Of a stretch of DNA of 64,000 bases, positions 1-18,924 are shown piece by piece. A program made the position numbers and the translations under genes. The first letter of the stretch is position 1, and the number at the start of each line of letters is the position of its first letter. Under the pieces are notes generated by a model. It was not told where the DNA came from. It was given only the letters and a program-made list of their open reading frames with translations, and searched no databases. Origin of the DNA: Leptonemataceae bacterium (lineage in GTDB: Bacteria > Spirochaetota > Leptospiria > Leptospirales > Leptonemataceae); assembly GCA_965227295.1 (NCBI GenBank), contig OZ245742.1, positions 4,544,001 through 4,608,000 on the forward strand. Reading direction: 5' to 3'.

Positions 1-998
1 TCCGGAATCTTAGAGAAGATCGCATCTTAGAAGCAACTCAGATGCGGAAGATTATCTACTCCCATGACGAACTAAAGCTCTTTTCCCCAAATACTTGCCC
101 CTACTGCCTTCGAGAAATCGACAGAAACGCCGGTGCGTGCGTCTGTGGGAAGCCTATCAATGAAGAGGACTACGAAAAATTCTTTTACGATCGCGAGGAA
201 TATCTGGATATCTTGAAGGCGAAGCAAAAGTCCATAGAAACAATTGAGATAGCGATCGAATCAGTATCAAAGGACCTGAAAGCGACGGAGGGGCAACTAA
301 GAAACATAGATGAATTAATAAAAGGAAGCTCAACCGAAATCGAAAACTTGTCACGAGACATCGAAACGGGAATTGACCTATCTGCATTCAATGAGATTGA
401 AAACAAGCTTCTGGGAGTCCGCTCTGAAATACAAGACCTACAAAAGGACTTAGAACTCAGAACACAGCAGGACATCATCGAGAAAGAACACGAGGAAAAT
501 GAAAATGAGTATAAACGACTGCTCGCCGCAAGCAAGAGTTTAGAACTAGAGGCAGCACAGGCCATGGAAGAAATACTTGAAATATTTTCCAAAAAATACA
601 AGGAACTGATCCGCTCATCTCTGCCAGAAGTAAATACGGCCGCAATTCAAGAGGATTACATGCCTGTCATAGATGGCGGAATATATAAACAAGCAAGCTC
701 GGCCGTACCACGCCGACTCCTCTATTACTTCGCCCTACTTCACATTTCGCTACAGCATCCTACCGTGCTCTTCCCACGTTTACTGATTATCGACACACCA
801 GAGAACCTCGGGATAGACTATGACGTATTTATGGACACGCTTCAGGCACTAGAGGCTGTCATCCCCGCCGGCAAAGAAGAACAATATCAAGTAATTCTGT
901 CCACAGGAGTTAATAAATATCCAGAGTCATATGCAGAGTATGTCTTCGAGAGTCTGTCCACGGACAATCGCCTACTTAAAGAAGTAGGGCCTGAATAG
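1..998 (+). CDS. C-terminal part of an SMC/Rad50-like coiled-coil ABC ATPase (Lamassu LmuB / ABC three-component type); 5' end lies outside the window
   Basis: Frame is open upstream of ATG 42 back to the window start. CPYC...CVCG zinc-hook-like motif, long coiled coil, SSA signature-like motif, Walker B LLIIDTP, QVILSTG. Lower GC than the host genes. Confidence 0.65.
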   Translation, partial: RNLREDRILEATQMRKIIYSHDELKLFSPNTCPYCLREIDRNAGACVCGKPINEEDYEKFFYDREEYLDILKAKQKSIETIEIAIESVSKDLKATEGQLRNIDELIKGSSTEIENLSRDIETGIDLSAFNEIENKLLGVRSEIQDLQKDLELRTQQDIIEKEHEENENEYKRLLAASKSLELEAAQAMEEILEIFSKKYKELIRSSLPEVNTAAIQEDYMPVIDGGIYKQASSAVPRRLLYYFALLHISLQHPTVLFPRLLIIDTPENLGIDYDVFMDTLQALEAVIPAGKEEQYQVILSTGVNKYPESYAEYVFESLSTDNRLLKEVGPE

Positions 999-1005
999 AA
1001 TCAAG

Positions 1006-1746
1006 GTGTGTACCCGTCTTATCGAAGCGATCGACGGCGCCGTGGCTACGCTTCAATTTACCGGAGCCTACGCCGAACGTCTCGGCCGCCTCTTCGAGGG
1101 GGCGATGACTCAGCAAGCGTCGAATTTCAAATCGGACCAGAAGTATATCCGGTTGAAGTGCGAAAGCCTGGATCAGCAGATCCGGCGGTTATACAGAGAA
1201 TACGCGGCCAGCGAACCAGCCGCCGCGCGGCAGATCATGGAAACCATCCGCGAAATGCAGGATGAAATCAAGACGCTGGAGAAAAAAGGCCAGAGCCTGC
1301 GCGCGGAAGACTTCGAGATCAACAACACCATCCTGCGATACATTGAAGAACTGCGGACGATTCCGGAAAAGTATCTGGCGGCGCGGACCACTGCGGAGAA
1401 AGCGAAACTTCTGCGAAACATGGTGCGCGCGATCTACGTGGACGGCGACGAGGTCATTTTCGACTGGCAAGAGCCGTATGCCTTCCTGGCGGACGAAGGC
1501 ATCTATCTGGCACTCACGAAACCGCGCGGGGGCTGGAAGAGCGGTGGTAAGCTCGCGGCGCAGCGCGCCGCCGCGAGCTTACCACCGCACACCCCGCAAA
1601 TGTCAGGGTGTTCGATTCCGTTTACTTCTGCGGAGCCAGCGAAACGCAGATCGAAAAAGCTGTCCGTGGAAGCGGAGATCGCCGCGCATATCCGGCTGAT
1701 GTTTCGGTTCTGGATGGCCGGCAAGAAACTTGCTGCCCACGGCTGA
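1006..1746 (+). pseudogene. Probable C-terminal fragment of a large serine recombinase, fused to the repeat-arm terminus
   Basis: Coiled coil followed by EKAKLLRNMVRAIYVDGDEVIFDW resembles serine integrase C-termini. No catalytic N-terminal domain. The last ~40 codons come from the repeated arm that starts at 1626. Confidence 0.5.
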
Positions 1747-2329
1747 ATTTGTGGCCACAAAGGCGGAGCATTTGTCGAGGCGCGTGGTGCGGTCGGCGGG
1801 AGTTTACCATGGTAAAATCTTTGGCTGACCCGGGCGTGGATCTCGTACCGGTACGGGGCGTGGGGTTGTGGTGGCCTCGCGCTACGCGCGAGTCTTCGAA
1901 GGTAGGTCCGCGGAAATCAGCCTGCCGGCGAGCGCCGCGCGCCTCGACAAATGCGTGGGGCGTGTGGCCACAGAGAACGGACGCGATCAGCGGAGCGATC
2001 ACGGAAAGAACTCACGGAAAGAACTCACGGAAAGAGGGCAAACATCACATGAGATATTGTTAGAGATTAAAGCACCAGGTGCCGCTGAAATCGAGTCCAC
2101 CTGGCAAGAACCCAACTGGATTATATATACGTCAATCGCGGCGACCAAAGACGTCCACGCTAACATATCTCGGCCGAACTCTAACCCCCGCCGCCCAGGT
2201 CGTGTCGTTTTTCTGGACAATCAAGGGAGTTCGAATTTCACGGCCAGCGCCGAGATCCCGCCGCGCACATCGTCGGTAATGCATCTGTGTATTTTGTGTG
2301 CGACGTCACGAAACCGCCGTACATAAATA

Positions 2330-2373
2330 GCGCGTGCAGGCGAAAACCCACCGGGTCTTCGCCTGCACGCGCG
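2330..2373. terminator. Strong GC hairpin after the three-gene arm operon (mirror copy near 7980-8022)
   Basis: GCGCGTGCAGGCGAA...TTCGCCTGCACGCGC, directly after the stop codon. Confidence 0.65.
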
Positions 2374-2379
2374 CGAACG

Positions 2380-2712
2380 TCACCAGCTCCAGCCGATTTC
2401 CTTTAACTGCTCCTTTTCTTCGGCTACGTCTTCTAACAGGTGGTCGGCGATCCGTTGCCAGTCCACTTTTTCGATGGCCCCCTGGAGTAACTCGCGCAAC
2501 AGTTCGGGAAGTTCGAGCCTGTGCAGATACTCCCGGTGACGATCTCTCAAGTGCGTGGCGAGTTGTTCTTCCTCGCCGTCACGAACACAATCGCAGGCAA
2601 TGCCCATAAACAAATCGTTGGTCGCCGTGTCTTTGTACATGCGCTCAGACACACACCACGTTTCGTAGTTGCCCCAACCGCAATAGTATTCGTTACTCCT
2701 TCCAGCCGTCAT
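2380..2712 (-). CDS. Phage/plasmid-type hypothetical protein (YxGWxNYETW motif), left-arm copy
   Basis: 110 aa with YCGWGNYETW and VDWQRIADHL motifs typical of small phage/plasmid proteins. Confidence 0.65.
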   Translation of the reverse strand: MTAGRSNEYYCGWGNYETWCVSERMYKDTATNDLFMGIACDCVRDGEEEQLATHLRDRHREYLHRLELPELLRELLQGAIEKVDWQRIADHLLEDVAEEKEQLKEIGWSW

Positions 2713-2896
2713 CGCAGAGGACCTTCTCCGGCTCTTTGCCGATCAATTCCCGGAGCGGCGGACGCTTACGCAGGTCCGCCGCAATGAGATTGCGAATGTG
2801 CTGTGCCGTGTTCGCGAAGCGCGTGCGCAATTCGTAGCGCATGTCTTCGCTGATGCCGACCAGATACTGAACTGATTTTCTTCCCGGGTCTTTCAT
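2693..2896 (-). CDS. Small protein, possibly ribbon-helix-helix DNA-binding, left-arm copy
   Basis: MKDPGRKSVQYLVGISEDMRYELRTRFANTAQHIRNLIAADL; ATGA overlap with the upstream stop; AGGAGG SD. Confidence 0.55.
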   Translation of the reverse strand: MKDPGRKSVQYLVGISEDMRYELRTRFANTAQHIRNLIAADLRKRPPLRELIGKEPEKVLCDDGWKE

Positions 2897-3366
2897 GCTT
2901 CGGCCTCCTGGTCCAGGTCGTCGAAGAGCGGGTAGAAACGAGTGCTTTTCGGCGCTCCCAGGTAACACGCGCGGCGGAGTTCCTGGTCCCACTCGCAAGC
3001 GACCTGTTGAAGTTCGAGAAACACTTCTCGATTTACTTTTAAGAGGGAATTCAGCCGGGACGGCTGCGGTACCTTCACCGGGGTGTAGACCTCTTTGAAT
3101 TCACCGGTAGTTTCACTGGCGAGCAGAAACGGAAACCACTCATTGTCCGCCGTGATTTCGAACTGCATTTCGCGAGCGCACAGCCAGCGGCCGTTTGCTT
3201 GCTTGATGAACTGCGAAACGCCCAGGGCGGGGCGAGCGGTTGGACCCTCTCCCAGAAACTCGATGACGAGCAGCGGGTATTCTTCGTGCTCCACGCGGAT
3301 GGACTCGCACTGCTTGAGCGCTTCCATGCCTTCGTGACTGACGATGATTTTCTGAATTGTTTCCAT
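2893..3366 (-). CDS. Hypothetical mobile-element protein (DUF6908-like), left-arm copy
   Basis: 157 aa, GGAGG Shine-Dalgarno, LVIEFLGEGP...EMQFEI pattern; identical to 6986-7459. Confidence 0.7.
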   Translation of the reverse strand: METIQKIIVSHEGMEALKQCESIRVEHEEYPLLVIEFLGEGPTARPALGVSQFIKQANGRWLCAREMQFEITADNEWFPFLLASETTGEFKEVYTPVKVPQPSRLNSLLKVNREVFLELQQVACEWDQELRRACYLGAPKSTRFYPLFDDLDQEAEA

Positions 3367-3527
3367 GTGATAGATTCCTCCGGGGGAAGGCTAAACACAC
3401 GGCGGCATACTGCAAGTTTAAACTCAAGGAAAGTTAATTTTTTGCTGACAAAAGCCCGGAGACATGCTAACATCACGAAATGTTACTCTAGTAAATGTCG
3501 ATGCACGAGGTCGCCCGCTTCTCTCTT

Positions 3528-3600
3528 TCAGGGGTGCGGGATTCGAACCCACTTCCCGGGGGACACAGTCCCGGATGTTAGCCGCATACACCAACCCCTA
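3528..3600 (-). tRNA. tRNA-His(GTG), atypical (no G-1/C73)
   Basis: Cloverleaf with anticodon loop CTGTGTC and GGTTCGAATCC T-arm. Confidence 0.75.
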
Positions 3601-3605
3601 TTGAA

Positions 3606-3679
3606 AATCCCGGCGAGGACTCGAACCCCGATCGACGGGGATAGAAGCCCCGTGCTTTTTCCCGTTAAGCTACCGGGAT
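3606..3679 (-). tRNA. tRNA-Arg(TCT)
   Basis: Anticodon arm CGGGG-CTTCTAT-CCCCG; T-loop TTCGAGT. Confidence 0.85.
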
Positions 3680-3682
3680 ACT

Positions 3683-3755
3683 TCGAAGCGGCTGGAATCG
3701 AACCAACACCAACGGCATATCAGAGCGTCGTTCTCAACCGTTAAACTACGCTTCG
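3683..3755 (-). tRNA. tRNA-Ile(GAT)
   Basis: Loop CTGATAT; acceptor CGAAGCG/CGCTTCG; one mismatch in the anticodon stem. Confidence 0.8.
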
Positions 3756-3759
3756 TATG

Positions 3760-3830
3760 CACCACGTAGGGGAGTCGAACCCCTGCTACTCGATCGACAA
3801 TCGGGCGTTCTACCGTTAAACTAATGCGGC
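3760..3830 (-). tRNA. tRNA-Asp(GTC)
   Basis: Loop TTGTCGA; T-loop TTCGACT; G discriminator. Confidence 0.8.
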
Positions 3831-3836
3831 AAACTG

Positions 3837-3910
3837 TAGGGCCCGCGGGACTCGAACCCGCAATCTCCAGATTCGTAATCTGATGCCTTGATCCATTTGG
3901 CCAGGGCCCT
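3837..3910 (-). tRNA. tRNA-Arg(ACG)
   Basis: TCAGA-TTACGAA-TCTGG arm. Confidence 0.88.
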
Positions 3911-3913
3911 GTG

Positions 3914-3987
3914 TTGGACTTGCAGGACTCGAACCTGCGGCCTTCCGCCTCGGAAGCGGGTGCTCTTTCCCTCTGAGCTAAAGTCCA
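3914..3987 (-). tRNA. tRNA-Arg(CCG)
   Basis: CCGC-TTCCGAG-GCGG arm. Confidence 0.85.
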
Positions 3988-3990
3988 GTG

Positions 3991-4061
3991 TGGAGCCGGT
4001 GGGAATCGAACCCACATCTGTTGCTTGCAAAACAAAGATTCTCCCGTTAAACTACGGCCCC
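3991..4061 (-). tRNA. tRNA-Ala(TGC)
   Basis: Loop TTTGCAA; G3:U70 alanine identity pair present. Confidence 0.85.
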
Positions 4062-4064
4062 GTG

Positions 4065-4138
4065 TACGGGCTGCTGGATTCGAACCAGCGATCTCCTGTT
4101 TGTAAGACAGGCGTTCTGACCTGCTAAACTAAGCCCGT
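4065..4138 (-). tRNA. tRNA-Val(TAC)
   Basis: CCTGT-CTTACAA-ACAGG arm. Confidence 0.9.
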
Positions 4139-4141
4139 GTG

Positions 4142-4213
4142 TTGCGGCGAAAGGAATTGAACCTCCGTAGGACGGGTTATGAGCCCGTTGCATCGCCACT
4201 ATGCTACACCGCA
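4142..4213 (-). tRNA. tRNA-Met(CAT), initiator-like
   Basis: ACGGG-CTCATAA-CCCGT with three consecutive G-C pairs; weak U1-A72 pair. Confidence 0.8.
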
Positions 4214-4219
4214 ATGTTT

Positions 4220-4294
4220 TGCCCGGTGCATGGATTCGAACCTGCAACCAGCGGTTTACAAAACCGCCGCTCTAACCATTGGAGCTAACCGGGC
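4220..4294 (-). tRNA. tRNA-Thr(TGT)
   Basis: GCGGT-TTTGTAA-ACCGC arm. Confidence 0.9.
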
Positions 4295-4297
4295 GTG

Positions 4298-4369
4298 TGC
4301 ATCAGCAGGGAATCGAACCCTGATGATCTGCTTGGAAGACAGACATGTTGGCCGTTACATCACTGATGC
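4298..4369 (-). tRNA. tRNA-Gly(TCC)
   Basis: TCTGT-CTTCCAA-GCAGA arm. Confidence 0.88.
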
Positions 4370-4373
4370 GTAT

Positions 4374-4447
4374 TCGTCGGGTTCGGGATCGAACCGAATT
4401 CTCTCGCTTTTCAGGCGAGCGCTCATGACCACACCTGCTCCCCGACG
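4374..4447 (-). tRNA. tRNA-Phe(GAA)
   Basis: CTCGC-CTGAAAA-GCGAG arm; weak D-arm. Confidence 0.8.
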
Positions 4448-4504
4448 TTCGTCTTGTTCTTCTTAAAGTCACTTTCGCTCATATTTACTCCTTAGTGCGA
4501 AATG

Positions 4505-4576
4505 TGGGTCCGGTGGGATTCGAACCCACGGCCATCCGATTAAAAGTCGGATGCTCTACCCCCGAGCTCCGGACCC
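4505..4576 (-). tRNA. tRNA-Lys(TTT)
   Basis: TCCGA-CTTTTAA-TCGGA arm. Confidence 0.9.
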
Positions 4577-4641
4577 GCTATTCTCTAAATGTCTTCTTGT
4601 CATCTTCGCTCTTCATGGCGTATCTCCTGTTGCTTATGATG

Positions 4642-4714
4642 TGCACCGCAAGAGACTCGAACTCTTCCCTGCTGCATGGCACACAGCTATGCTTGCCACT
4701 AACACCAGCGATGC
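4642..4714 (-). tRNA. tRNA-Gly(GCC)
   Basis: GCTGT-GTGCCAT-GCAGC arm. Confidence 0.8.
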
Positions 4715-4723
4715 GTTTAAACG

Positions 4724-4757
4724 AAAAAACCCTCCAGGGAGTCGGCCGGGGAGGGTT
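4724..4757 (-). terminator. Attenuator terminator of tRNA block 4
   Basis: AACCCTCC...GGAGGGTT followed by TTTT on the minus strand, directly before tRNA-Gly. Confidence 0.85.
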
Positions 4758-4784
4758 CTTCATGAATGCGTTTGCAGATTCTTC

Positions 4785-4901
4785 TCAGCAACGCATGCGC
4801 AGAACTCCTCCGGCGATCCGGCCGTCCTTATGGCCCGCATCGATCCGCATCCCGATAAATCGGGCGGTTCTCACAACCGTTGCTGTTACTGTTAAGCTCA
4901 T
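4785..4901 (-). CDS. Leader peptide of block 4, MSLTVTATVVRTARFIGMRIDAGHKDGRIAGGVLRMRC
   Basis: Codons 4-33 use only the 11 amino acids of the downstream tRNAs. Only synonymous changes in copy B (13977-14093). Confidence 0.85.
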   Translation of the reverse strand: MSLTVTATVVRTARFIGMRIDAGHKDGRIAGGVLRMRC

Positions 4902-4951
4902 GATAGAATACTCAGACGAATCCCTTGTTAAATTTCTTATAAAAATATCTT

Positions 4952-5023
4952 TGCCGACGCAGGGAATCGAAACCTGATTACCGCAGTGAAAGTGCGAGGT
5001 CCTTGCCTTTAGACGACGCCGGC
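4952..5023 (-). tRNA. tRNA-Glu(TTC)
   Basis: Loop CTTTCAC; T-stem imperfect in copy A and intact in copy B. Confidence 0.8.
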
Positions 5024-5119
5024 GATTTGAGTTGAAACGTAGTTAGGTCCACGTTCCCGTTCTCGCGGCATCGCTCCAGCTGACACGTATGTACGTCCTG
5101 CGCGGTTCATTATACTATG

Positions 5120-5190
5120 AGACATGGGTGGGATTCGAACCCACGTAAACGGCTTTGCAGACCGCCCGCTGGCCTCTCGCGCACCATGTC
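5120..5190 (-). tRNA. tRNA-Cys(GCA)
   Basis: GCGGT-CTGCAAA-GCCGT arm; U discriminator. Confidence 0.88.
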
Positions 5191-5285
5191 GGGTTTACTC
5201 TGGCTTGCGGCGGTCGGTAACATCGTTCTCTGTCTTCCATATCTCCCTCATAACACTTGAAAAATAAGCAAAATGCCCATAAACG

Positions 5286-5319
5286 AAAAAAGGCGAGCCG
5301 TTGATCCGGGCTCGCCTTT
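5286..5319 (-). terminator. Attenuator terminator of tRNA block 3
   Basis: AAAGGCGAGCC...GGCTCGCCTTTTTT. Confidence 0.88.
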
Positions 5320-5343
5320 CGCATCCAGCAGGTTACACTGAAT

Positions 5344-5451
5344 CTAAGACGAGCGCATGACTCCCTGAAACACATCACGCTCACAACCCGCATGAATCAT
5401 GCCGGCCTTCGCGAGGTCTCGTTCCGTTCTATGTTGGCGCTTCGGCGACAT
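5344..5451 (-). CDS. Leader peptide of block 3, MSPKRQHRTERDLAKAGMIHAGCERDVFQGVMRSS (alternative start 5400)
   Basis: Adjacent Cys-Glu codons; the stop overlaps GCTCGTCTT, which complements the terminator 5' arm; frame conserved in copy B (13375-13482). Confidence 0.65.
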   Translation of the reverse strand: MSPKRQHRTERDLAKAGMIHAGCERDVFQGVMRSS

Positions 5452-5531
5452 TCCGTTTCCTGAATACTTACTTGGTATTCGACGTCAACAACTTCATAAA
5501 GATTTAAATATTTTTTTCATGGAACTCAATG

Positions 5532-5604
5532 TTCCGGGAGATGGATTCGAACCATCAACCCCCGACTTCAAAGGCCGGTGTTCTACCCGTTGAACTACCC
5601 CGGA
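5532..5604 (-). tRNA. tRNA-Gln(TTG)
   Basis: CCGGC-CTTTGAA-GTCGG arm. Confidence 0.88.
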
Positions 5605-5612
5605 ATGAGTTG

Positions 5613-5684
5613 CACCGGAGGCAGGACTCGAACCTGCATAGAACGCATTAACATTGCGTCGCCTTACCATTAGGCTACTCCGGT
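5613..5684 (-). tRNA. tRNA-Asn(GTT)
   Basis: ACGCA-ATGTTAA-TGCGT arm. Confidence 0.88.
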
Positions 5685-5688
5685 ATTC

Positions 5689-5766
5689 TGGCAGAGGGAA
5701 CAGGATTCGAACCTGTGAACATCGGATTTGGAGTCCGACAGCTTGGACCGCTCGACTCATCCCTCT
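5689..5766 (-). tRNA. tRNA-Trp(CCA), with encoded 3' CCA
   Basis: TCGGA-CTCCAAA-TCCGA arm. Confidence 0.88.
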
Positions 5767-5769
5767 ATG

Positions 5770-5842
5770 TCGGCGTGGTGGGACTTGAACCCACGACCCC
5801 CGGTTCCCGAAACCGGTGCTCTACACCCTGAGCTATACGCCG
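5770..5842 (-). tRNA. tRNA-Pro(CGG)
   Basis: CCGGT-TTCGGGA-ACCGG arm; C1-G72, A73. Confidence 0.9.
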
Positions 5843-5845
5843 GAT

Positions 5846-5882
5846 AATAAAAAACCCCCTCAAGCTTCCGCCGGAGGGGGTT
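5846..5882 (-). terminator. Attenuator terminator of tRNA block 2
   Basis: AACCCCCTC...GAGGGGGTTTTTTATT. Confidence 0.88.
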
Positions 5883-5911
5883 CTCGCGCAAACGCGCTGT
5901 TGCTCAGAGCA

Positions 5912-5983
5912 CTACACGACCACCTCCAGGCAGATGCCGGGATTCTGTTGGGGCCAGTTGCTCTGTGGGAAAAACATGCTCAT
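5912..5983 (-). CDS. Leader peptide of block 2, MSMFFPQSNWPQQNPGICLEVVV
   Basis: PQSNWPQQNP control run matches the Pro/Trp/Asn/Gln tRNAs. Copy B (12689-12754) is 6 nt shorter at the 5' end with the frame preserved. Confidence 0.88.
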   Translation of the reverse strand: MSMFFPQSNWPQQNPGICLEVVV

Positions 5984-6087
5984 CACGTTTACCTGAAGTT
6001 AAGAGACGACGGTTTTCGAGAAATCCTTAACGAAAATATATTTTTTGGAACGAAAGCTTCGCTTTGCCTCGTCTCATCTACCGTATC

Positions 6088-6156
6088 ATGAACGGTATGT
6101 TACTATCATCGCTGTATCTTCTCAGCTCCGGCGGCATGCGGGAGGCGGCGATGTAG
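6088..6156 (+). CDS. Leader peptide of block 1, MNGMLLSSLYLLSSGGMREAAM (alternative start 6097)
   Basis: Ten consecutive Leu/Ser/Tyr codons, all different; identical in copy B (12516-12584, minus strand). Confidence 0.9.
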   Translation: MNGMLLSSLYLLSSGGMREAAM

Positions 6157-6184
6157 TACGCGCAGACAGTTTTCTGTCTTCGAG

Positions 6185-6224
6185 AAGCCCCTCCCGGTGA
6201 ACCCGCGAGGGGCTTTTTGTTTTT
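6185..6224 (+). terminator. Attenuator terminator of tRNA block 1
   Basis: AAGCCCCTC...GAGGGGCTT followed by TTTGTTTTT. Confidence 0.88.
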
Positions 6225-6228
6225 AAAC

Positions 6229-6315
6229 GCGCTGCTTTCCTCCTGCCGGTCTGTAAAGCCGGGGTCGTTAAACGAGGAGGTCGGGAGACGAGAGGTTCAA
6301 ATCCTCGGCAGCGCA
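6229..6315 (+). tRNA. tRNA-Tyr(GTA)-like RNA lacking a normal D-arm
   Basis: Acceptor GCGCTGCT/GGCAGCGC; arm CCGGT-CTGTAAA-GCCGG; T-arm GAGG-TTCAAAT-CCTC. Confidence 0.65.
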
Positions 6316-6319
6316 TACT

Positions 6320-6403
6320 GGATAGATGCCCGAGTGGTAAGGGACCCGTTTCGAAAACGGAGGTCGGCGGTTCGTCGCGTGGGTTCGATTCCTACTCTAT
6401 CCG
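6320..6403 (+). tRNA. tRNA-Ser(CGA)
   Basis: Loop TTCGAAA, long variable arm, G73. Confidence 0.88.
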
Positions 6404-6409
6404 CATTAC

Positions 6410-6493
6410 GGAGGGATGACCGAGTGGTAAGGTATCCGGTTGGAAGCCGGTGGTCATCGATGAGATGCGAAGGTTCGATTCCTTCTCCCTCCG
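6410..6493 (+). tRNA. tRNA-Ser(GGA)
   Basis: Loop TTGGAAG, long variable arm, G73. Confidence 0.88.
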
Positions 6494-6499
6494 AGAAAT

Positions 6500-6584
6500 G
6501 GAACAGTGGCCGAGAGGTAAGGCAGCGGTCCGCTAAACCGTGGTCGTCGTAACAGACGCGGAGGTTCGATTCCTCCCTGTTCCG
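6500..6584 (+). tRNA. tRNA-Ser(GCT)
   Basis: GCGGT-CCGCTAA-ACCGT arm (C33), long variable arm. Confidence 0.85.
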
Positions 6585-6587
6585 CAG

Positions 6588-6662
6588 CGAGCGATAGCCC
6601 AATCAGGCAGAGGCAGTCGACTTAAAATCGGCAGAGTGCGGGTTCGATTCCCGCTCGCTCAA
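6588..6662 (+). tRNA. tRNA-Leu(TAA), short variable loop
   Basis: GTCGA-CTTAAAA-TCGGC arm. Confidence 0.82.
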
Positions 6663-6665
6663 AAC

Positions 6666-6738
6666 GCATCCGTAGCCCAACGGTAGAGGCACCAGGTCGA
6701 GAGCCTGGTCAGTGCAGGTTCGAATCCGGCCGGATGCA
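6666..6738 (+). tRNA. tRNA-Leu(GAG), short variable loop
   Basis: CCAGG-TCGAGAG-CCTGG arm (C33). Confidence 0.75.
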
Positions 6739-6741
6739 CAC

Positions 6742-6814
6742 GGGGACGTAGCCCAACGGCAGAGGCAGCACGCTCAGAACGTGTCCAGTGTGAGTTCGAA
6801 TCTCGCCGCCCCCA
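6742..6814 (+). tRNA. tRNA-Leu(CAG), short variable loop
   Basis: GCACG-CTCAGAA-CGTGT arm. Confidence 0.82.
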
Positions 6815-6985
6815 TAGAGTCTCCACTGAAGAGATTTGCGACCTCGTGCATCGACATTTACTAGAGTAACATTTCGTGATGTTAGCATGTCTCCGGGCTT
6901 TTGTCAGCAAAAAATTAACTTTCCTTGAGTTTAAACTTGCAGTATGCCGCCGTGTGTTTAGCCTTCCCCCGGAGGAATCTATCAC

Positions 6986-7459
6986 ATGGAAACAATTCAG
7001 AAAATCATCGTCAGTCACGAAGGCATGGAAGCGCTCAAGCAGTGCGAGTCCATCCGCGTGGAGCACGAAGAATACCCGCTGCTCGTCATCGAGTTTCTGG
7101 GAGAGGGTCCAACCGCTCGCCCCGCCCTGGGCGTTTCGCAGTTCATCAAGCAAGCAAACGGCCGCTGGCTGTGCGCTCGCGAAATGCAGTTCGAAATCAC
7201 GGCGGACAATGAGTGGTTTCCGTTTCTGCTCGCCAGTGAAACTACCGGTGAATTCAAAGAGGTCTACACCCCGGTGAAGGTACCGCAGCCGTCCCGGCTG
7301 AATTCCCTCTTAAAAGTAAATCGAGAAGTGTTTCTCGAACTTCAACAGGTCGCTTGCGAGTGGGACCAGGAACTCCGCCGCGCGTGTTACCTGGGAGCGC
7401 CGAAAAGCACTCGTTTCTACCCGCTCTTCGACGACCTGGACCAGGAGGCCGAAGCATGA
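6986..7459 (+). CDS. Hypothetical protein (DUF6908-like), right-arm copy
   Basis: Identical to 2893-3366. Confidence 0.7.
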   Translation: METIQKIIVSHEGMEALKQCESIRVEHEEYPLLVIEFLGEGPTARPALGVSQFIKQANGRWLCAREMQFEITADNEWFPFLLASETTGEFKEVYTPVKVPQPSRLNSLLKVNREVFLELQQVACEWDQELRRACYLGAPKSTRFYPLFDDLDQEAEA

Positions 7460-7659
7460 AAGACCCGGGAAGAAAATCAGTTCAGTATCTGGTCGGCATC
7501 AGCGAAGACATGCGCTACGAATTGCGCACGCGCTTCGCGAACACGGCACAGCACATTCGCAATCTCATTGCGGCGGACCTGCGTAAGCGTCCGCCGCTCC
7601 GGGAATTGATCGGCAAAGAGCCGGAGAAGGTCCTCTGCGATGACGGCTGGAAGGAGTAA
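7456..7659 (+). CDS. Small putative RHH DNA-binding protein, right-arm copy
   Basis: ATGA coupling to the upstream gene; AGGAGG SD. Confidence 0.55.
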   Translation: MKDPGRKSVQYLVGISEDMRYELRTRFANTAQHIRNLIAADLRKRPPLRELIGKEPEKVLCDDGWKE

Positions 7660-7972
7660 CGAATACTATTGCGGTTGGGGCAACTACGAAACGTGGTGTG
7701 TGTCTGAGCGCATGTACAAAGACACGGCGACCAACGATTTGTTTATGGGCATTGCCTGCGATTGTGTTCGTGACGGCGAGGAAGAACAACTCGCCACGCA
7801 CTTGAGAGATCGTCACCGGGAGTATCTGCACAGGCTCGAACTTCCCGAACTGTTGCGCGAGTTACTCCAGGGGGCCATCGAAAAAGTGGACTGGCAACGG
7901 ATCGCCGACCACCTGTTAGAAGACGTAGCCGAAGAAAAGGAGCAGTTAAAGGAAATCGGCTGGAGCTGGTGA
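7640..7972 (+). CDS. Phage/plasmid-type hypothetical protein, right-arm copy
   Basis: Identical to 2380-2712. Confidence 0.65.
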   Translation: MTAGRSNEYYCGWGNYETWCVSERMYKDTATNDLFMGIACDCVRDGEEEQLATHLRDRHREYLHRLELPELLRELLQGAIEKVDWQRIADHLLEDVAEEKEQLKEIGWSW

Positions 7973-8316
7973 CGTTCGCGCGCGTGCAGGCGAAGACCCG
8001 GTGGGTTTTCGCCTGCACGCGCTATTTATGTACGGCGGTTTCGTGACGTCGCACACAAAATACACAGATGCATTACCGACGATGTGCGCGGCGGGATCTC
8101 GGCGCTGGCCGTGAAATTCGAACTCCCTTGATTGTCCAGAAAAACGACACGACCTGGGCGGCGGGGGTTAGAGTTCGGCCGAGATATGTTAGCGTGGACG
8201 TCTTTGGTCGCCGCGATTGACGTATATATAATCCAGTTGGGTTCTTGCCAGGTGGACTCGATTTCAGCGGCACCTGGTGCTTTAATCTCTAACAATATCT
8301 CATGTGATGTTTGCCC

Positions 8317-9328
8317 TCTTTCCGTGAGTTCTTTCCGTGAGTTCTTTCCGTGAGTTCTTTCCGTGAGTTCTTTCCGTGAGTTCTTTCCGTGAGTTCTTTC
8401 CGTGAGTTCTTTCCGTGAGTTCTTTCCGTGAGTTCTTTCCGTGAGTTCTTTCCGTGAGTTCTTTCCGTGAGTTCTTTCCGTGAGTTCTTTCCGTGAGTTC
8501 TTTCCGTGAGTTCTTTCCGTGAGTTCTTTCCGTGAGTTCTTTCCGTGAGTTCTTTCCGTGAGTTCTTTCCGTGAGTTCTTTCCGTGAGTTCTTTCCGTGA
8601 GTTCTTTCCGTGAGTTCTTTCCGTGAGTTCTTTCCGTGAGTTCTTTCCGTGAGTTCTTTCCGTGAGTTCTTTCCGTGAGTTCTTTCCGTGAGTTCTTTCC
8701 GTGAGTTCTTTCCGTGAGTTCTTTCCGTGAGTTCTTTCCGTGAGTTCTTTCCGTGAGTTCTTTCCGTGAGTTCTTTCCGTGAGTTCTTTCCGTGAGTTCT
8801 TTCCGTGAGTTCTTTCCGTGAGTTCTTTCCGTGAGTTCTTTCCGTGAGTTCTTTCCGTGAGTTCTTTCCGTGAGTTCTTTCCGTGAGTTCTTTCCGTGAG
8901 TTCTTTCCGTGAGTTCTTTCCGTGAGTTCTTTCCGTGAGTTCTTTCCGTGAGTTCTTTCCGTGAGTTCTTTCCGTGAGTTCTTTCCGTGAGTTCTTTCCG
9001 TGAGTTCTTTCCGTGAGTTCTTTCCGTGAGTTCTTTCCGTGAGTTCTTTCCGTGAGTTCTTTCCGTGAGTTCTTTCCGTGAGTTCTTTCCGTGAGTTCTT
9101 TCCGTGAGTTCTTTCCGTGAGTTCTTTCCGTGAGTTCTTTCCGTGAGTTCTTTCCGTGAGTTCTTTCCGTGAGTTCTTTCCGTGAGTTCTTTCCGTGAGT
9201 TCTTTCCGTGAGTTCTTTCCGTGAGTTCTTTCCGTGAGTTCTTTCCGTGAGTTCTTTCCGTGAGTTCTTTCCGTGAGTTCTTTCCGTGAGTTCTTTCCGT
9301 GAGTTCTTTCCGTGAGTTCTTTCCGTGA
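8317..9328. repeat. Perfect 13-bp tandem repeat (TCTTTCCGTGAGT), ~78 copies
   Basis: 1012 bp of invariant units; the mirror site 1999-2035 has ~2.8 units. Confidence 0.97.
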
Positions 9329-9356
9329 TCGCTCCGCTGATCGCGTCCGTTCTCTG

Positions 9357-11340: not shown

Positions 11341-11499
11341 TGGCCACACGCCCCACGCATTTGTGGCCACAAATTCAGCCGTGGGCAGCAAGTTTCTTGC
11401 CGGCCATCCAGAACCGAAACATCAGCCGGATATGCGCGGCGATCTCCGCTTCCACGGACAGCTTTTTCGATCTGCGTTTCGCTGGCTCCGCAGAAAAAT

Positions 11500-11680
11500 T
11501 GATCCATGACCTACTTCGACCACTGCATAACCAACGCCGGCTCGGAAGGGATGAATTCACGAATCCAGGCGATCAAAACTCGCGCCCGGGGCTTCCGAAA
11601 CTTCGCCCATTACCGGGCCTCGATCCTCTCTCATTGCGGGGATTTAGAGCTTTATCCGTGAAAATTCCTGAAGATGGACG
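11500..11680 (+). pseudogene. ISL3-family transposase C-terminal remnant
   Basis: Reads YFDHCITNAGSEGMNSRIQAIKTRARGFRNF...CG, then LELYP* after a frameshift, followed by an IR-like AAATTCCTGAAGA. Confidence 0.75.
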
Positions 11681-11799
11681 CACATGGCGGCATATTACAA
11701 GTTTAAACTCAAGGAAAGTTAATTTTTTGCTGACAAAATCCTGGAGACATGCTAACATCACGCAATGTTACTCTAGTAAATGTCGATGCACGAGATCGC
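11681..11799. repeat. Truncated left arm of tRNA array B
   Basis: Diverged copy of ~3396-3514. Confidence 0.9.
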
Positions 11800-11822
11800 A
11801 AATCTCTTCAATGGAGACTATA

Positions 11823-12443
11823 TGGGGACGGTGAGACTCGAACTCACACTAGACACGTTCTGAGCGTGCTGCCTCTACCGCGAATGTAAGCAGTTGCTCC
11901 CGGGTGGTCGCAACTGCGGCGGTTCAGACTGCTTCGCAGTCTGGGCTACGGATGCGTTTCGAGCGAGCGGGAATCGAACCCGCACTCTGCCGATTTTAAG
12001 TCGACTGCCTCTGCCTGATTGGGCTATCGCTCGCTGCGGAACAGGGAGGAATCGAACCTCCGCGTCTGTTACGACGACCACGGTTTAGCGGACCGCTGCC
12101 TTACCTCTCGGCCACTGTTCCAATTTCCGGAGGGAGAAGGAATCGAACCTTCGCGCCTGTTAAGACGACCGCCGGCTTCCAACCGGATACCTTACCACTC
12201 GGTCATCCCTCCACGCTGCGGATAGAGTAGGAATCGAACCCACGCGACGAACCGCCGACCTCCGTTTTCGAAACGGGTCCCTTACCACTCGGGCATCTAT
12301 CCAGTATGCGCTGCCGAGGATTTGAACCTCTCGTCACCCGACCTCCTCGTTTAACGAGTAAACTGTACCTTGCTGCGCAAGCCTTGACTTACTACCGCCT
12401 TTCAGTTGCTGGCGTTTACAGACCGGCAGGAGGAAAGCAGCGC
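11823..12443 (-). tRNA. Array B block 1: Tyr-like (insertion), Ser CGA, Ser GGA, Ser GCT, Leu TAA, chimeric Leu GAG/CAG (insertion)
   Basis: Homologous to 6229-6814 in inverted orientation; leader at 12516-12584 and terminator retained. Confidence 0.88.
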
Positions 12444-12823
12444 GTTTAAAAAGAAAAAGCCCCTCGCGGGTTTACCGGGAGGGGCTTCTCGAAGACAGAG
12501 AACTGTCCGCGCGTACTACATCGCCGCCTCCCGCATGCCGCCGGAGCTGAGAAGATACAGCGATGATAGTAACATACCGTTCATGATACGGTACATGAGA
12601 CGAGGCAAAGCGAAGCTTTCGTTCCAAAAAATATATTTTCGTTAAGAATTTCTCGAAAACCGTCGTCTCTTAACTTCAGGTAAACGTGATGCACTTCCCA
12701 CAGAGCAACTGGCCCCAACAGAATCCCGGCATCTGCCTGGAGGTGGTCGTGTAGTGCTCTGAGCAACAGCGCGTTTGCGCGAGAACCCCCTCCGGCGGAA
12801 GCTTGAGGGGGTTTTTTATTATC

Positions 12824-13294
12824 CGGCGTGTAGCTCAGGGTGTAGAGCACCGGTATCGGGAACCGGGGGTCGTGGGTTCAAGTCCCACCACGCCGACATA
12901 GAGGGATGAGTCGAGCGGTCCAGGCTGTCGGACTCCAAATCCGATGTTCACAGGTTTTTGTGCATGGATGCACTTATGCCGCGGAGGACAGGAAGTCCGG
13001 GAGCGGCCGAATCCTGAAAGAGGAAGATGCTACGCATCTTTCATCTTACTGACGCGCTGCGCTTGTCCCTCTGCCAGAATACCGGAGTAGCCTAATGGTA
13101 AGGCGACGCACTGTTAATGCGTTCTATGCAGGTTCGAGTCCTGCCTCCGGTGCAACTCATTCCGGGGTAGTTCAACGGGTAGAACACCGGCCTTTGAAGT
13201 CGGGGGCGCAAATAGACTTTTGCCTTATGGCAAAAGTCGGCGGTTCGGAGTTGTGCGGCAACGCACAACTCCGGGTCCTCACCATCTCCCGGAG
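12824..13294 (+). tRNA. Array B block 2: Pro CGG, Trp CCA (two insertions), Asn GTT, Gln TTG (T-arm replaced by an insertion)
   Basis: Homologous to 5532-5842; leader at 12689-12754 and terminator retained. Confidence 0.88.
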
Positions 13295-13635
13295 CATTGA
13301 GTTCTATGAAAAAAATATTTAAATCTTTATGAAGTTGTTGACGTCGAATACCGAGTAAGTAATCAGGAAACGGAATGTCGCAGAAGCGCCTACAGACAAC
13401 GGAACGAGACCTCGCGAAGGCCGGCATGATTCATGCGGGTTGTGAGCGTGATGTGTTTCAGGGAGTCATGCGCTCGTCTTAGATTCAGTGTAACCTGCTG
13501 GATGCGAAAGGCGAGCCCGGATCAACGGCTCGCCTTTTTTCGTTTATGGGCATTTTGCTTATTTTTCAAGTGTTATGAGGGAGATATGGAAGACAGAGAA
13601 CGATGTTACCGACCGCCGCAAGCCAGAGTAAACCC

Positions 13636-13926
13636 GACATGGTGCGCGAGAGGCCAGCGGGCGGTCTGCAAAGCCGTTTAACGTGGGTTTGTGTGCAGGG
13701 ATGCACTTATGCCGCGAAGGACAGGATGTCCGGGAGCGGCCGAATCCCACCCATGTCTCATAGTACAATGAACCGCGCAGGACGTACATATGTATCAGCC
13801 GGAGCGATGCCGCGAGAGCGGGAACGTGGATCAAGCTACGTTTCAACTCAAATCGCCGGCGTCGTCTAACGGCAAGGACGCTGCACTTTCACTGCGGTAA
13901 TCGGGGTTCGATTCCCCGCGTCGGCA
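13636..13926 (+). tRNA. Array B block 3: Cys GCA (51-nt insertion), Glu TTC
   Basis: Homologous to 4952-5190; leader at 13375-13482 and terminator retained. Confidence 0.88.
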
Positions 13927-14163
13927 AAGGTATTTTCATAAGAAATTTAACAATGGATTCGTCTGAGTATTCTATCATGAGCTTAACAGTAACAGCAACG
14001 GTTGTAAGGACCGCCCGATTTATCGGGATGCGGATCGATGCGGGCCATAAGGACGGCCGGATCGCCGGAGGAGTTCTGCGCATGCGTTGCTGAGAAGAAT
14101 CTACAGACGCATTCATGAAGAACCCTCCCCGGCCGACGCCCTGGAGGGTTTTTTCGTTTATAC

Positions 14164-15529
14164 GCATCGCTGGTGTCAGTGGCAAGCATAGCTGTGTGCC
14201 ATGCAGCAGGGAAGAGTTCGAGTCTCTTGCGGTGCACATTACAGAAAACAGGAGGTACGCCATGAAGAGCGAAGATGACAAGAAGACGTTTAGAGAATAG
14301 CGGGTCCGGAGCTCGGGGGTAGAGCATCCGACTTTTAATCGGATGGCGATCGGTTGAGTGCTTCGCACTCTCATCTTACTCCCGCCTTTCAGTTGGGGGT
14401 TCGAATCCCACCGGACCCACATTTCAAGTAGCGAGGTTAATATGAACGAAAGTGACTTTAAGAATAATAAGACGGAACGTCGGGGAGCAGGTGTGGTCAT
14501 TGCATCCGGTTGAAGCCCGGAGGAATTCGGTTCGATCCCGAGCCCGACGAATACGCATCAGTGATGTAACGGTCAACATGTCTGTCTTCCAAACAGATCA
14601 TCAGGGTTTTTGGCCATGGATGGCCTTATGCCGCGGAGGACAGGAGGTCCGAGAGCGGCCGATTCCCTGCTGATGCACACGCCCGGTTAGCTCCAATGGT
14701 TAGAGCGGCGGTTTTGTGAACCGCTGGTTGCAGGTTCGAATCCGTGCACCGGGCAAAACATTGCGGTGTAGCATAGTGGCGATGCAGCGGGCTCATAACC
14801 CGTCCTACGGAGGTTCAATTCCTTCCGCCGCAACATACGGGCTTAGGACGCAATATAAACGCCTGTCTTACAAACAGGAGATCGCTGGTTTTTGTGCATG
14901 GATGCACTTATGCCGCGGAGGCCAGGAGGGCCGAGAGCGGCCGAATCCGGCAGCCCGTACATGGGGCCGTAGTTTAACGGGAGAATCTTTGTTTTGCAAA
15001 CAAGGGACGTCGGTTCGATTCCGACCGGTTCCACAAATTGGACTTTAGCTCAGAGGGACAGAGCGCCCGTTTCCGAAGCGGTAGGCCGCAGGTTTTTGGC
15101 CACGGATGGCCTTATGCCGCGAAGGACAGGAGGTCCGAGAGCGGCCGAGTCCTGCAAGTCCAACACAGGGCCCTGGCCAAATGGATCAAGGCATCAGATT
15201 ACGAATCTGAAGATTGCGGGTTCGAGTCCCGCGGGCTCTACATGCCGCGTTAGTTTAATGGTAGAACTCCTGATTGTCTCTCAGGGGGCGAGGGTTCGAT
15301 TCCCTCACGTGGTGCATACGAAGCGTAGTTTAACGGTTGAGAACGACGGTCTGATATGCCGTTGGTTAAAGACGAAGATTCAGCGTTATGCGTGAACGCA
15401 TAACGCTGGGTTCGATTCCAGCCGCTTCGAAGCATCCCGGTAATCGGGATTTTCATAAGGGGTTGGTGTATGTGGCTAACATCCGGGATTGTGTCTCCCG
15501 GGCAGTGGGTTCGAATCCCGCACCCCTGA
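14164..15529 (+). tRNA. Array B block 4: Gly GCC, Lys*, Phe, Gly TCC*, Thr, Met, Val*, Ala, Arg CCG*, Arg ACG, Asp, Ile*, (Arg TCT internally deleted), His; * = insertion
   Basis: Homologous to 3528-4714; leader at 13977-14093 and terminator retained. Confidence 0.88.
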
Positions 15530-15542
15530 AAGAGAGAAGCGG

Positions 15543-15943
15543 GCGATCTCATGCATCGATATTTACTAGAGTAACATTGCATGATGTTAGCATGTCGCCA
15601 GGTTTTTGTCAGCAAAAAATTAACTTTCCTTGAGTTTAAACTTGTAATATGCCGCCATGTATTTAGCCTTCCCCCGGAGGAAACTATCACATGGAAACAA
15701 TTCAGAAAATCATCGTCAGTCACGAAGGCATGGAAGCGCTCAAACTGTGCGAGTCCATCCGCGTGGAACACGAAGAATACCCTCTGCTCGTCATAGAGTT
15801 TCTGGGACAGGGGCCCACCGCTCGCCCCGCCGTGGGCGTTTCGCAGTTCATCAAGCAAGCGGGTAAACATCAGCCGGATATGCGCGGCAATCTCCCCTTC
15901 CACAGACAACTTTTTCGATCTACGTTTCGCTGGCTCCGCAGAA
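15543..15943. repeat. Internally deleted right arm of array B
   Basis: 15543-15860 matches 6838-~7155; 15865-15943 matches 11417-11495. Confidence 0.9.
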
Positions 15944-16542: not shown

Positions 16543-16549
16543 GCTCTAT

Positions 16550-17803: not shown

Positions 17804-17822
17804 CTATTCGATTCTCCCGAAC

Positions 17823-18767: not shown

Positions 18768-18924
18768 GGGATCACCATTTTCGCATGAAATGTTAGTTTT
18801 ATGTTAGCCGGATTGTACACATAAATGAAACAATGTCTACTACTTTTAGCTCGCCCGGTAAAATGCGCGGCGAGCTCCCCCGGTTCATCGTTGATTCCGT
18901 TCCGGGAATCATTCTCCATGGCCC

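Follow-up and report, generated by a model that had tools for sequence, protein, structure and literature searches.

Leader-peptide attenuators include trpL, hisL, leuL, thrL, the multivalent ilv leaders and pheST, and T-box riboswitches control tRNA genes in clostridia. The mechanism of leader attenuation in amino-acid operons is described in the accessible part of PMC1183508. In the whiB7/wblC system, the shortage that is sensed depends on the composition of an upstream ORF (uORF); the M. smegmatis whiB7 uORF holds all amino acids except Cys, and the WblC regulon includes six tRNA genes and tuf3 (accessible parts of PMC10274678 and PMC7157823). The Anabaena trn operon, an L-array of about 26 supernumerary tRNA genes beyond the housekeeping set, is induced under translational stress, and an RNA ligase is co-regulated with it (PMC8421152, PMC10272220). 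Mechanisms of differential tRNA gene regulation are largely unknown (PMC8421152, Discussion). The terms 'attenuat-', 'leader' and 'terminator' do not occur in the main texts of PMC8421152 and PMC10272220, and no description of leader-peptide attenuation of tRNA genes was found in the literature searched.

The locus described here is a tRNA array in a window of 64,000 nt (the whole stretch of DNA analysed) from a Leptonemataceae bacterium. Like amino-acid operon attenuators, its cassettes combine a short ORF carrying putative regulatory codons, a predicted antiterminator/terminator pair, a U tract and several amino acids per leader. Unlike them, the cassettes would control tRNA genes instead of biosynthetic enzymes or synthetases, a single leader is matched to as many as 11 amino acids, and a whole decoding set would be split among parallel attenuators. 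As in a T-box, tRNA charging would be sensed through terminator/antiterminator choice; however, a T-box binds uncharged tRNA directly, whereas a translated ORF would be the sensor here, and Rfam matched neither a T-box nor any other cis-regulatory family (window positions 1-20000; loci L021-L025). The array resembles the Anabaena trn operon in being supernumerary and in its ~26 tRNA genes, and would resemble it in being induced by translational stress and in its link to an RNA ligase. In contrast to that single operon under the DNA-binding repressor TrcR, it is divided between both strands into four transcription units that carry putative block-specific RNA switches, and its two strands and internal terminators set it apart from the single-orientation, one-operon usage of PMC8421152. 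The broad amino-acid content of its Cys/Glu leader recalls the M. smegmatis whiB7 uORF. As the accessible parts of the whiB7/wblC papers describe that system, one attenuator governs a transcription factor that activates tRNA genes in trans, whereas here each block and an EF-Tu paralogue would have an attenuator of their own in cis.

Array layout, copies and neighbourhood

Between positions 3528 and 6814, ARAGORN called 26 tRNA genes, and an atypical Tyr-like RNA missed by both ARAGORN and Rfam completes the 27 tRNA-like genes of the preliminary description. The genes span all 20 amino acids and form four blocks. No amino acid is common to two blocks in the window, as had been noted, but this is ruled out as a rule by G008, a genome of another genus in which blocks share Gly, Lys and Arg. 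With 26-27 genes in 3.3 kb, the array falls within the definition of a tRNA array (L-array) in the accessible part of PMC4758250, at least 20 tRNA genes at a density of at least 2 per kb. The features of the locus are:

1999..3514, minus strand: left arm of a perfect inverted repeat of 1516 nt, with a DUF6908 gene downstream of block 4 (sequence comparison)
3528..4714, minus strand: block 4, 14 tRNA genes (Gly x2, Lys, Phe, Thr, Met, Val, Ala, Arg x3, Asp, Ile, His; ARAGORN, Rfam)
4724..4757, minus strand: predicted block 4 terminator hairpin and U tract, 9 nt ahead of tRNA-Gly(GCC) (RNAfold)
4785..4901, minus strand: block 4 leader, 38 codons (enrichment, folding, codon reading)
4952..5190, minus strand: block 3, tRNA-Cys(GCA) and tRNA-Glu(TTC) (ARAGORN)
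5286..5318, minus strand: predicted block 3 terminator hairpin and U tract (RNAfold)
5344..5451, minus strand: block 3 leader, 35 codons (enrichment, folding, conservation)
5531..5842, minus strand: block 2, tRNA-Pro(CGG), Trp, Asn and Gln (ARAGORN)
5849..5882, minus strand: predicted block 2 terminator hairpin and U tract, 6 nt ahead of tRNA-Pro (RNAfold)
5912..5983, minus strand: block 2 leader, 23 codons (enrichment, folding)
5984..6087, no strand assigned: putative divergent promoter region of blocks 1 and 2 (promoter-like motif)
6088..6156, plus strand: block 1 leader, 22 codons (enrichment, codon reading)
6185..6218, plus strand: predicted block 1 terminator hairpin and U tract (RNAfold)
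6229..6315, plus strand: tRNA-Tyr-like RNA, anticodon GTA (structure and conservation)
6320..6814, plus strand: block 1, tRNA-Ser x3 (CGA, GGA, GCT) and tRNA-Leu x3 (TAA, GAG, CAG) (ARAGORN)
6838..8353, plus strand: right arm of the inverted repeat, with a second DUF6908 gene downstream of block 1 (sequence comparison)
11797..15556, no strand assigned: inverted copy B of the array, 81-99% identical to copy A

Outside the arrays, the host has 45 tRNA calls representing all 20 amino acids, a full housekeeping set to which the array is supernumerary; tRNA-Pro(CGG) is the only array tRNA without a counterpart among them. In a genome scan, a terminator and a short ORF lie upstream of one of these 45. 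The Tyr-like RNA has acceptor and T arms, a helix enclosing the anticodon arm replaces the ordinary D arm, and G001 and G008 share the structure, with compensatory pairs. Among genomes, its T-arm pattern matches only G001, G002 and G008; three matches in metagenomes and one in viruses included none of this array, one lying without tRNAs nearby and three at other tRNA loci.

The array is not an assembly artefact. Contigs from two studies cover it, and the inverted junction 3514/6837 is present in runs X1 and X2, both of one study that may be the assembly's source. In both the host and G001, inverted DUF6908 genes bracket the array. Copy B keeps four intact cassettes and only 15 ARAGORN tRNAs, with hairpin insertions of roughly 50-60 nt splitting many of its tRNAs. 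The earlier observation that cassettes outlive tRNAs in this copy is correct, but it is weak evidence because the copies are so similar and much of the decay is due to hairpin repeats inserted in tRNA T-loops, a target absent from the leaders.

Leader peptides and predicted RNA switches

Each of the four blocks is preceded by one leader ORF (22, 23, 35 or 38 codons) and then a terminator, in agreement with the preliminary description. The enrichment of each leader for the amino acids of its block, also claimed there, holds for three leaders (p 0.003 to 0.0002 against the genome amino-acid background) but not for the Cys/Glu leader of block 3. In the block 4 leader, 33 of 37 residues belong to the block's 11 amino acids (p 0.00017), all 14 anticodons of the block are served, and the 3' end forms the predicted antiterminator strand. 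The block 2 leader contains a Pro/Gln/Asn/Trp run, with block residues at 9 of 22 positions (p 0.00075), and the block 1 leader has ten Leu/Ser/Tyr codons in succession, each codon different (10/21 residues, p 0.0026). Of 14,194 short genomic ORFs, 83, 26 and 0 are at least as enriched as the block 1, 2 and 4 leaders, respectively, and hold every amino acid of the block. Matched codons of the block 1 and block 2 leaders are confined to the permissive zone (10/14 and 9/15), and the tails hold 0/7 each. G001, G002 and copy B preserve the leader frames; an ungapped codon comparison gave no usable dN/dS signal, and a Shine-Dalgarno sequence was not obvious by eye at most leaders.

The Cys/Glu leader shows no Cys/Glu enrichment (3/34, p 0.47), a level matched or exceeded by 2,047 of the 14,194 short ORFs. 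It contains 17 different amino acids, among them every one of the 13 carried by the tRNAs of blocks 3 and 4; the range for the Cys/Glu leader is 16-18 of the 20. The frame and Cys-Glu-Arg are kept in G001 and G002, which retain the Cys codon although no tRNA-Cys was found in that block. Because of this breadth and the retained codon, it looks like a sampler of amino acids in general rather than a block-specific leader.

The leader-block match follows the amino acid more than the anticodon. Cognate codons occur in the own leader for 26 of the 27 window anticodons, the exception being tRNA-Pro(CGG), which cannot read the leader's CCA/CCC codons; under strict wobble, block tRNAs could not read 10 of 55 block-amino-acid codons in the window leaders. 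The G008 leaders lack a match for Lys-CTT and Leu-CAA, and 13 of 24 block codons in the Phe/Gly/Ala/Lys leader are unreadable (strict wobble). The term 'codon-matched' used previously is therefore right at the level of the amino acid, but strict codon-to-anticodon matching is ruled out as a rule, and the signal would be that charged tRNA of an isotype runs short, whatever the cause.

U-tailed hairpins are predicted in 4/4 window cassettes and in 21 of the 22 tRNA cassettes examined. The window terminators have RNAfold z values of -2.0 to -3.5 and carry internal loops, and a stock terminator scan listed 0/4 of them. Each window leader lies 58-63 nt from the end of its hairpin, and the distance from stop codon to U-tract end is 56-66 nt in 21/21 cassettes. 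The terminators of three window blocks stand 6-10 nt ahead of the first tRNA, a gap that leaves no room for a promoter. The leader 3' end (last 6-14 codons) is predicted to pair with the 5' arm of the terminator, as previously seen for all four window cassettes, and a mutually exclusive antiterminator is predicted in 21/21; its duplex energy is better than shuffles (p<=0.05) in 15/21 cassettes, including 2/4 in copy A.

The alternative folds were modelled by ribosome position in 21 cassettes, a set that leaves out the G008 Leu/Cys cassette, whose leader is followed by no clear U-tailed terminator. The antiterminator probability was 0.52-1.00 with the ribosome in the sensing zone and <=0.10 at the stop codon in 18/21; in the window's 38-codon cassette, antiterminator pairing returned at the stop (0.73). 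The ribosome-free state favoured the antiterminator (>0.5) in 15/21. In equilibrium folding, the full terminator wins at almost every ribosome position for the majority of cassettes; any switching must therefore be kinetic. On an ilvB-like control, the switch at the Val run was not reproduced by the model.

Reshuffled blocks in relatives and competing explanations

All four cassettes persist in G001 and G002, whose 38-codon leaders have widely diverged in sequence and are still 31/37 and 34/37 in-block, and the tRNAs of G002 are decaying. In G008, the spare tRNAs are grouped differently (Tyr/Asn/Gln; Gly/Thr/Val/Arg/Lys/His; Phe/Gly/Ala/Lys; Leu/Cys; Ser; Trp/Glu/Asp/Arg). All 6/6 leaders found there match their own new block (p 1.2e-3 to 1.2e-5), and the true leader-block pairing is the best of 720 assignments (25.0 vs 18.5). 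The Ser and the Trp/Glu/Asp/Arg leaders were located by RNA pattern alone, with block and peptide unseen beforehand. The independent arrangements number only two, genus g1 and G008. A G008 Ile/Arg/Lys/Met/Met cluster ahead of an rtcB-like gene has no leader or terminator within 350 nt, and G007 has only two Ser tRNAs, which are housekeeping-like. The terminator pattern is patchy (4/156 genomes of the order). A phylum-wide search gave 0/401 with a pattern that missed the host itself (G000), as did another RNA pattern. In viral contigs, the terminator pattern had 27 loci, none followed by a tRNA block on the same strand.

The same cassette type also lies ahead of a second EF-Tu (tuf2), an Rnl2-like ligase and a lone tRNA-Arg(TCT), with leaders of mixed composition; that of the tRNA-Arg has only 2 Arg codons, neither AGA. 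EF-Tu paralogues are preceded by it in two genera. In the same genome, a Val-rich leader and a similar terminator precede an acetolactate-synthase-like gene (named by eye).

A short ORF before the genes, a predicted upstream intrinsic terminator and a predicted overlapping antiterminator are thus all present, and control codons related to the product precede the antiterminator in 3/4 window and 6/6 G008 leaders, the Cys/Glu leader being the exception. On these sequence features, we consider it very probable that the cassettes represent ribosome-mediated attenuation of the trp/ilv type, applied to backup tRNA genes. The preliminary description had reached the same view, which the G008 reshuffling and the folding by ribosome position strengthen. 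A fast-reading ribosome would cover the antiterminator strand, allowing the terminator to form and leaving the tRNAs untranscribed; a ribosome stalled because charged tRNA of those isotypes is scarce would leave the antiterminator free, and RNA polymerase would enter the block. Each block would then respond to shortage of the tRNA class it supplies, a negative feedback. As most leaders match their own blocks and change with reshuffling, each tRNA set is probably made only when ribosomes stall on those codons. The Cys/Glu cassette and those at the second EF-Tu, the ligase and the lone tRNA-Arg probably sense translation slowdown generally. As physiological trigger, the least supported step, damage to tRNA or stress on translation is the likeliest, with nucleases, toxins, starvation and antibiotics as candidate causes. 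We give roughly even chances to a wider proposal, that the array is a complete replacement decoding set with isotype-resolved feedback, each block being transcribed only when ribosomes fail on its own amino acids; that one of its members is a functional tRNA-Tyr lacking a conventional D arm, its position tracking Tyr codons in leaders of two genera; and that the array, a spare EF-Tu and an RNA ligase together form part of a translation-repair regulon read by ribosomes.

The mixed leaders within the cassette family would also suit general sensors of translation stress or antibiotics in the style of ermC, lmo0919 or whiB7, with block matching minor in control. Ribosome-targeting antibiotics induce the Anabaena array (PMC8421152), and the antiterminator preference of most ribosome-free leaders means that any translation block could open the cassettes. 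Such sensors leave unexplained why leader composition tracks six rearranged G008 blocks and three window blocks, and we regard this account as unlikely. More improbable still are non-switching relics of a mobile element of phage or ICE origin, with the array silent or constitutive in the host: the bracketing DUF6908 genes, the partly viral clusters of DUF6908 look-alikes (a lead only), the tRNA decay in copy B and G002 and the patchy distribution would fit, but the G008 blocks lie on five contigs, several amid ordinary host genes, with leaders still matched, and EF-Tu paralogues of two genera carry the same cassette type. Geometry alone can arise by chance, as 44 of the genome's 1,590 terminator-like sites pass a loose ORF-plus-antiterminator filter; yet chance frames or small proteins ahead of ordinary insulating terminators would account for neither the leader enrichment and leader-block covariation, nor the fixed stop-to-U-tract spacing, nor the short terminator-to-tRNA gaps, and this explanation has very little probability.

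If ribosome-mediated attenuation operates here, the system would be a tRNA-gene counterpart of trp/ilv attenuation, located on a bacterial chromosome and spanning all 20 amino acids. Each leader sequence names the shortage that is expected to open its tRNA block, a direct test of the array's purpose, and the cassettes would serve as portable sensors for the depletion of single tRNA isotypes. Should the array be a replacement set, the leader peptides would form a sequence-readable record of the tRNA classes that the cell expects to lose together.

Further elements within the array

A CGTC-centred promoter-like motif, a putative promoter, lies 18 and 25 nt upstream of the two leader start codons that flank the region between blocks 1 and 2. 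It is present in 12 of 18 leaders by a pattern derived after inspecting those same leaders, and is a lead only. Four further mini-ORFs follow terminators on the minus strand (4423..5240; starts at 5240, 5110, 4616 and 4482). Each directly precedes or overlaps into one tRNA gene and has homologues in relatives, and a Shine-Dalgarno-like sequence is present at 3/4 of them.

The spare tRNA array and its setting

ARAGORN called 26 tRNAs in the array (3528-6814), and a tRNA-Tyr-like RNA at 6229-6315 brings the total to the 27 tRNA-like genes of the preliminary description. Outside the arrays, the host genome (5.94 Mb, single contig) yields 45 tRNA calls representing all 20 amino acids, so the array is supernumerary; Pro-CGG is the sole tRNA found in the array and not elsewhere in the host. 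Block 1 (Tyr/Ser/Leu) lies on the plus strand, and blocks 2 (Pro/Trp/Asn/Gln), 3 (Cys/Glu) and 4 (eleven amino acids) follow in tandem on the minus strand. As had been described, a short ORF and then a U-tract hairpin precede each of the four blocks (RNAfold z-scores -2.0 to -3.5); a stock terminator scan reported none of the four hairpins.

Perfect 1516-nt inverted repeats with DUF6908 genes flank the array, and an inverted, decaying duplicate (copy B) occupies 11797-15556. The array is covered by contigs from two studies, and the inverted junction is present in sequencing runs X1 and X2, both from one study that is possibly the source; the array with its leaders is a real feature. Neighbouring proteins include a DUF1554 match and a LIC_13029 match below the cut-off. 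There are nine DUF6908 matches in the host, and inverted DUF6908 pairs also flank the array of the same-genus relative G001 (L021 4653-10599) and, at host C1:21260-30130, other cargo (a 2184-codon ORF). Such pairs suggest a mobile cassette type. The stretch separating the two copies holds a long tandem repeat of a 13-nt unit (8300-9450) and a group II intron that carries its reverse transcriptase (9457-11304). Hairpin repeats of ~50-60 nt are inserted at an identical T-loop position in many array tRNAs of copy B (12956-15150) and of L022, with related repeats at four other host sites and in strain variants. Sigma-70-like sites at 3445-3473 (plus) and 6879-6907 (minus), one per inverted-repeat arm, point inward, antisense to the tRNA-block 3' ends; their count is near chance.

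Leader composition and its covariation with the blocks

Each leader had been described as enriched for its own block, which stood, against the genome background, for the Tyr/Ser/Leu leader (10/21 residues in-block, p 0.0026), the Pro/Trp/Asn/Gln leader (9/22, p 0.00075) and the 38-codon leader of block 4 (33/37, p 0.00017), but not for Cys/Glu (3/34, p 0.47). Of 24 ways to assign leaders to blocks, the true one ranks best. Among 14,194 short ORFs of the genome, 83, 26, 0 and 2,047 equal the leaders of blocks 1, 2, 4 and 3, respectively, with every block amino acid present. Ten consecutive codons of the Tyr/Ser/Leu leader are all different. The proposed codon matching held in part: a cognate leader codon exists for 26/27 anticodons (the exception being Pro-CGG), but under strict wobble 10/55 block-amino-acid codons are not readable by own-block tRNAs; the match is one of amino acid first. 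In four copies, the leader of the Cys/Glu block uses 16-18 of the amino acids; the window copy includes each of the 13 that blocks 3 and 4 serve (simulated P 0.009, a post hoc figure), which those of G001 and G002 do not. There seem to be two leader classes, block-specific and sampler.

Among 60 relatives, the array was detected in two of the same genus, G001 and G002, and in one of another genus, G008, and the terminator pattern matched 4/156 genomes of the order, namely these three and the host. All four cassettes are kept in G001 and G002; there, with block 2 inverted, the Cys/Glu cassette diverges from that block and must be served by a promoter of its own. The 38-codon leaders there share few codons with that of the window in an ungapped comparison and are nonetheless 31/37 (G001) and 34/37 (G002) in-block; the Cys/Glu leader keeps its Cys codon though the block there is without tRNA-Cys. 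The spare tRNAs of G008 are grouped otherwise and spread over five contigs, and the six leaders fit the regrouped blocks (p 1.2e-3 to 1.2e-5).

In-block residues of the G008 leaders
Tyr/Asn/Gln leader: 11/26
Gly/Thr/Val/Arg/Lys/His leader: 23/34
Phe/Gly/Ala/Lys leader: 24/41
Leu/Cys leader: 10/31
Ser leader: 8/29
Trp/Glu/Asp/Arg leader: 16/28

The true pairing in G008 is the best of 720, and codons for Tyr, Trp, Ser, Leu, Cys and Glu have shifted between leaders together with their tRNAs; the independent arrangements compared number two, not ten. The RNA pattern had picked out the Ser and Trp/Glu/Asp/Arg cassettes at a point when neither block nor peptide was known. Counting against the covariation, a further G008 cluster (Ile/Arg/Lys/Met/Met), followed by a gene that by eye is rtcB-like, has no cassette within 350 nt, and none was seen upstream of three other small loci; the check covered these four loci and not three further housekeeping-like clusters.

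Predicted switch and attenuation

The distance from stop codon to U-tract end is 56-66 nt in 21/21 cassettes. Folding was modelled with the ribosome footprint masked per codon and the transcript ending just inside the terminator 3' arm; the G008 Leu/Cys leader, which has no clear U-tailed terminator, was left out. The described complementarity was borne out: with an upstream ribosome, the leader 3' end is predicted to pair with the terminator 5' arm at a probability of 0.52-1.00, and in 15/21 cassettes the antiterminator duplex is stronger than in shuffled sequence (p<=0.05). In the model this pairing disappears 6-14 codons ahead of the stop, falling to <=0.10 with the ribosome at the stop in 18/21; the exceptions are the 38-codon cassette (0.73 in copy A, 0.62 in copy B) and the Tyr/Ser/Leu cassette of copy B (0.23). 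In the two short window leaders, matched codons make up 10/14 and 9/15 of the predicted permissive zone and 0/7 of each tail. No switch was given on an ilvB-like control.

Geometry, composition and covariation of the cassettes, all established at the sequence level, make it likely that these spare tRNA blocks are controlled by ribosome-mediated attenuation, as first proposed. If charged tRNA for the isotypes in a block ran short, the leader ribosome would stall, and RNA polymerase would then read into that block; leader translation, termination, induction and trigger are what we infer. Without a ribosome the antiterminator is predicted to be favoured in 15/21 cassettes, so most of them would also open if initiation failed. 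Once the whole transcript is folded, the terminator is usually the predicted winner; the choice must therefore be kinetic.

Of the published systems compared, the two closest are the TrcR-repressed Anabaena trn operon (PMC8421152) and the uORF of whiB7/wblC. What that uORF senses depends on its amino-acid content, and its regulon has six tRNA genes and tuf3 among its members, controlled in trans (PMC10274678, PMC7157823). Neighbouring literature also includes PMC10272220, PMC4758250, PMC2965389 and PMC1183508. The words 'attenuat' and 'terminator' have no occurrences in the main texts of three tRNA-array papers, including PMC8421152 and PMC10272220. No description of leader-peptide attenuation of tRNA genes was found in the open-licence full-text literature, as judged from search listings and abstract openings; within that scope, the array would represent a known mechanism acting on an undescribed target class.

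Related cassettes and accompanying RNAs

Cassettes of the same look precede several other genes. A genome-wide filter passed 44/1,590 terminator-like sites, and those upstream of the second EF-Tu, the Rnl2-like ligase and the acetolactate-synthase-like gene belong to these 44.

Cassettes of the same look outside the arrays
Host C1:2591608, minus: before a second EF-Tu (named by eye)
Host C1:3966036, minus: before an Rnl2-like ligase (NCBIfam E 0.0006, below cut-off)
Host C1:2606130, plus: Val-rich leader before an acetolactate-synthase-like gene (named by eye)
Host C1:286234, minus: mixed, unmatched leader before a lone tRNA-Arg(TCT)
G008 L060: before an EF-Tu paralogue

The tRNA-upstream scan overlooked the tRNA-Arg(TCT) leader and the 38-codon leader of the window. 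Given the ligase and the spare EF-Tu, the trigger of attenuation is better explained by tRNA damage or translation stress than by starvation for amino acids, but the leaders cannot distinguish them. A CGTC-centred motif lies upstream of 12/18 leaders (post hoc) and may resemble ECF sigma -10 elements.

The Tyr-like RNA is without a normal D arm; three genomes conserve it, with compensatory pairs. In a consensus fold built from four homologous copies, 8 of the 25 pairs are changed on both sides. Its location goes along with Tyr codons in the leader.

Copies of the tRNA-Tyr-like RNA
Window: 6229-6315
G001, L021: 8877-8963
G008, L023: 1610-1700
G008, L023: about 1296-1385

In G001 and G002, a structured RNA of ~267 nt separates tRNA-Gly from tRNA-Thr (L021 6489-6755, minus; L022 9240-9557, plus). 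Its 5' and T-arm ends are tRNA-like, and it contains many hairpins capped by GNRA loops; it has no Rfam match and is not present in the window.

Mini-ORFs after the terminators (minus strand)
Start 5240: directly before tRNA-Cys
Start 5110: directly before tRNA-Glu
Start 4616: directly before tRNA-Lys
Start 4482: directly before tRNA-Phe

Three of these four have a strong (Shine-Dalgarno-like) ribosome-binding site, and each carries an acidic stretch close to a codon for the next tRNA's amino acid. They may act as a second layer of control or as anti-Rho cover. Three are kept in G001 or G002, with synonymous changes in the one before tRNA-Glu.
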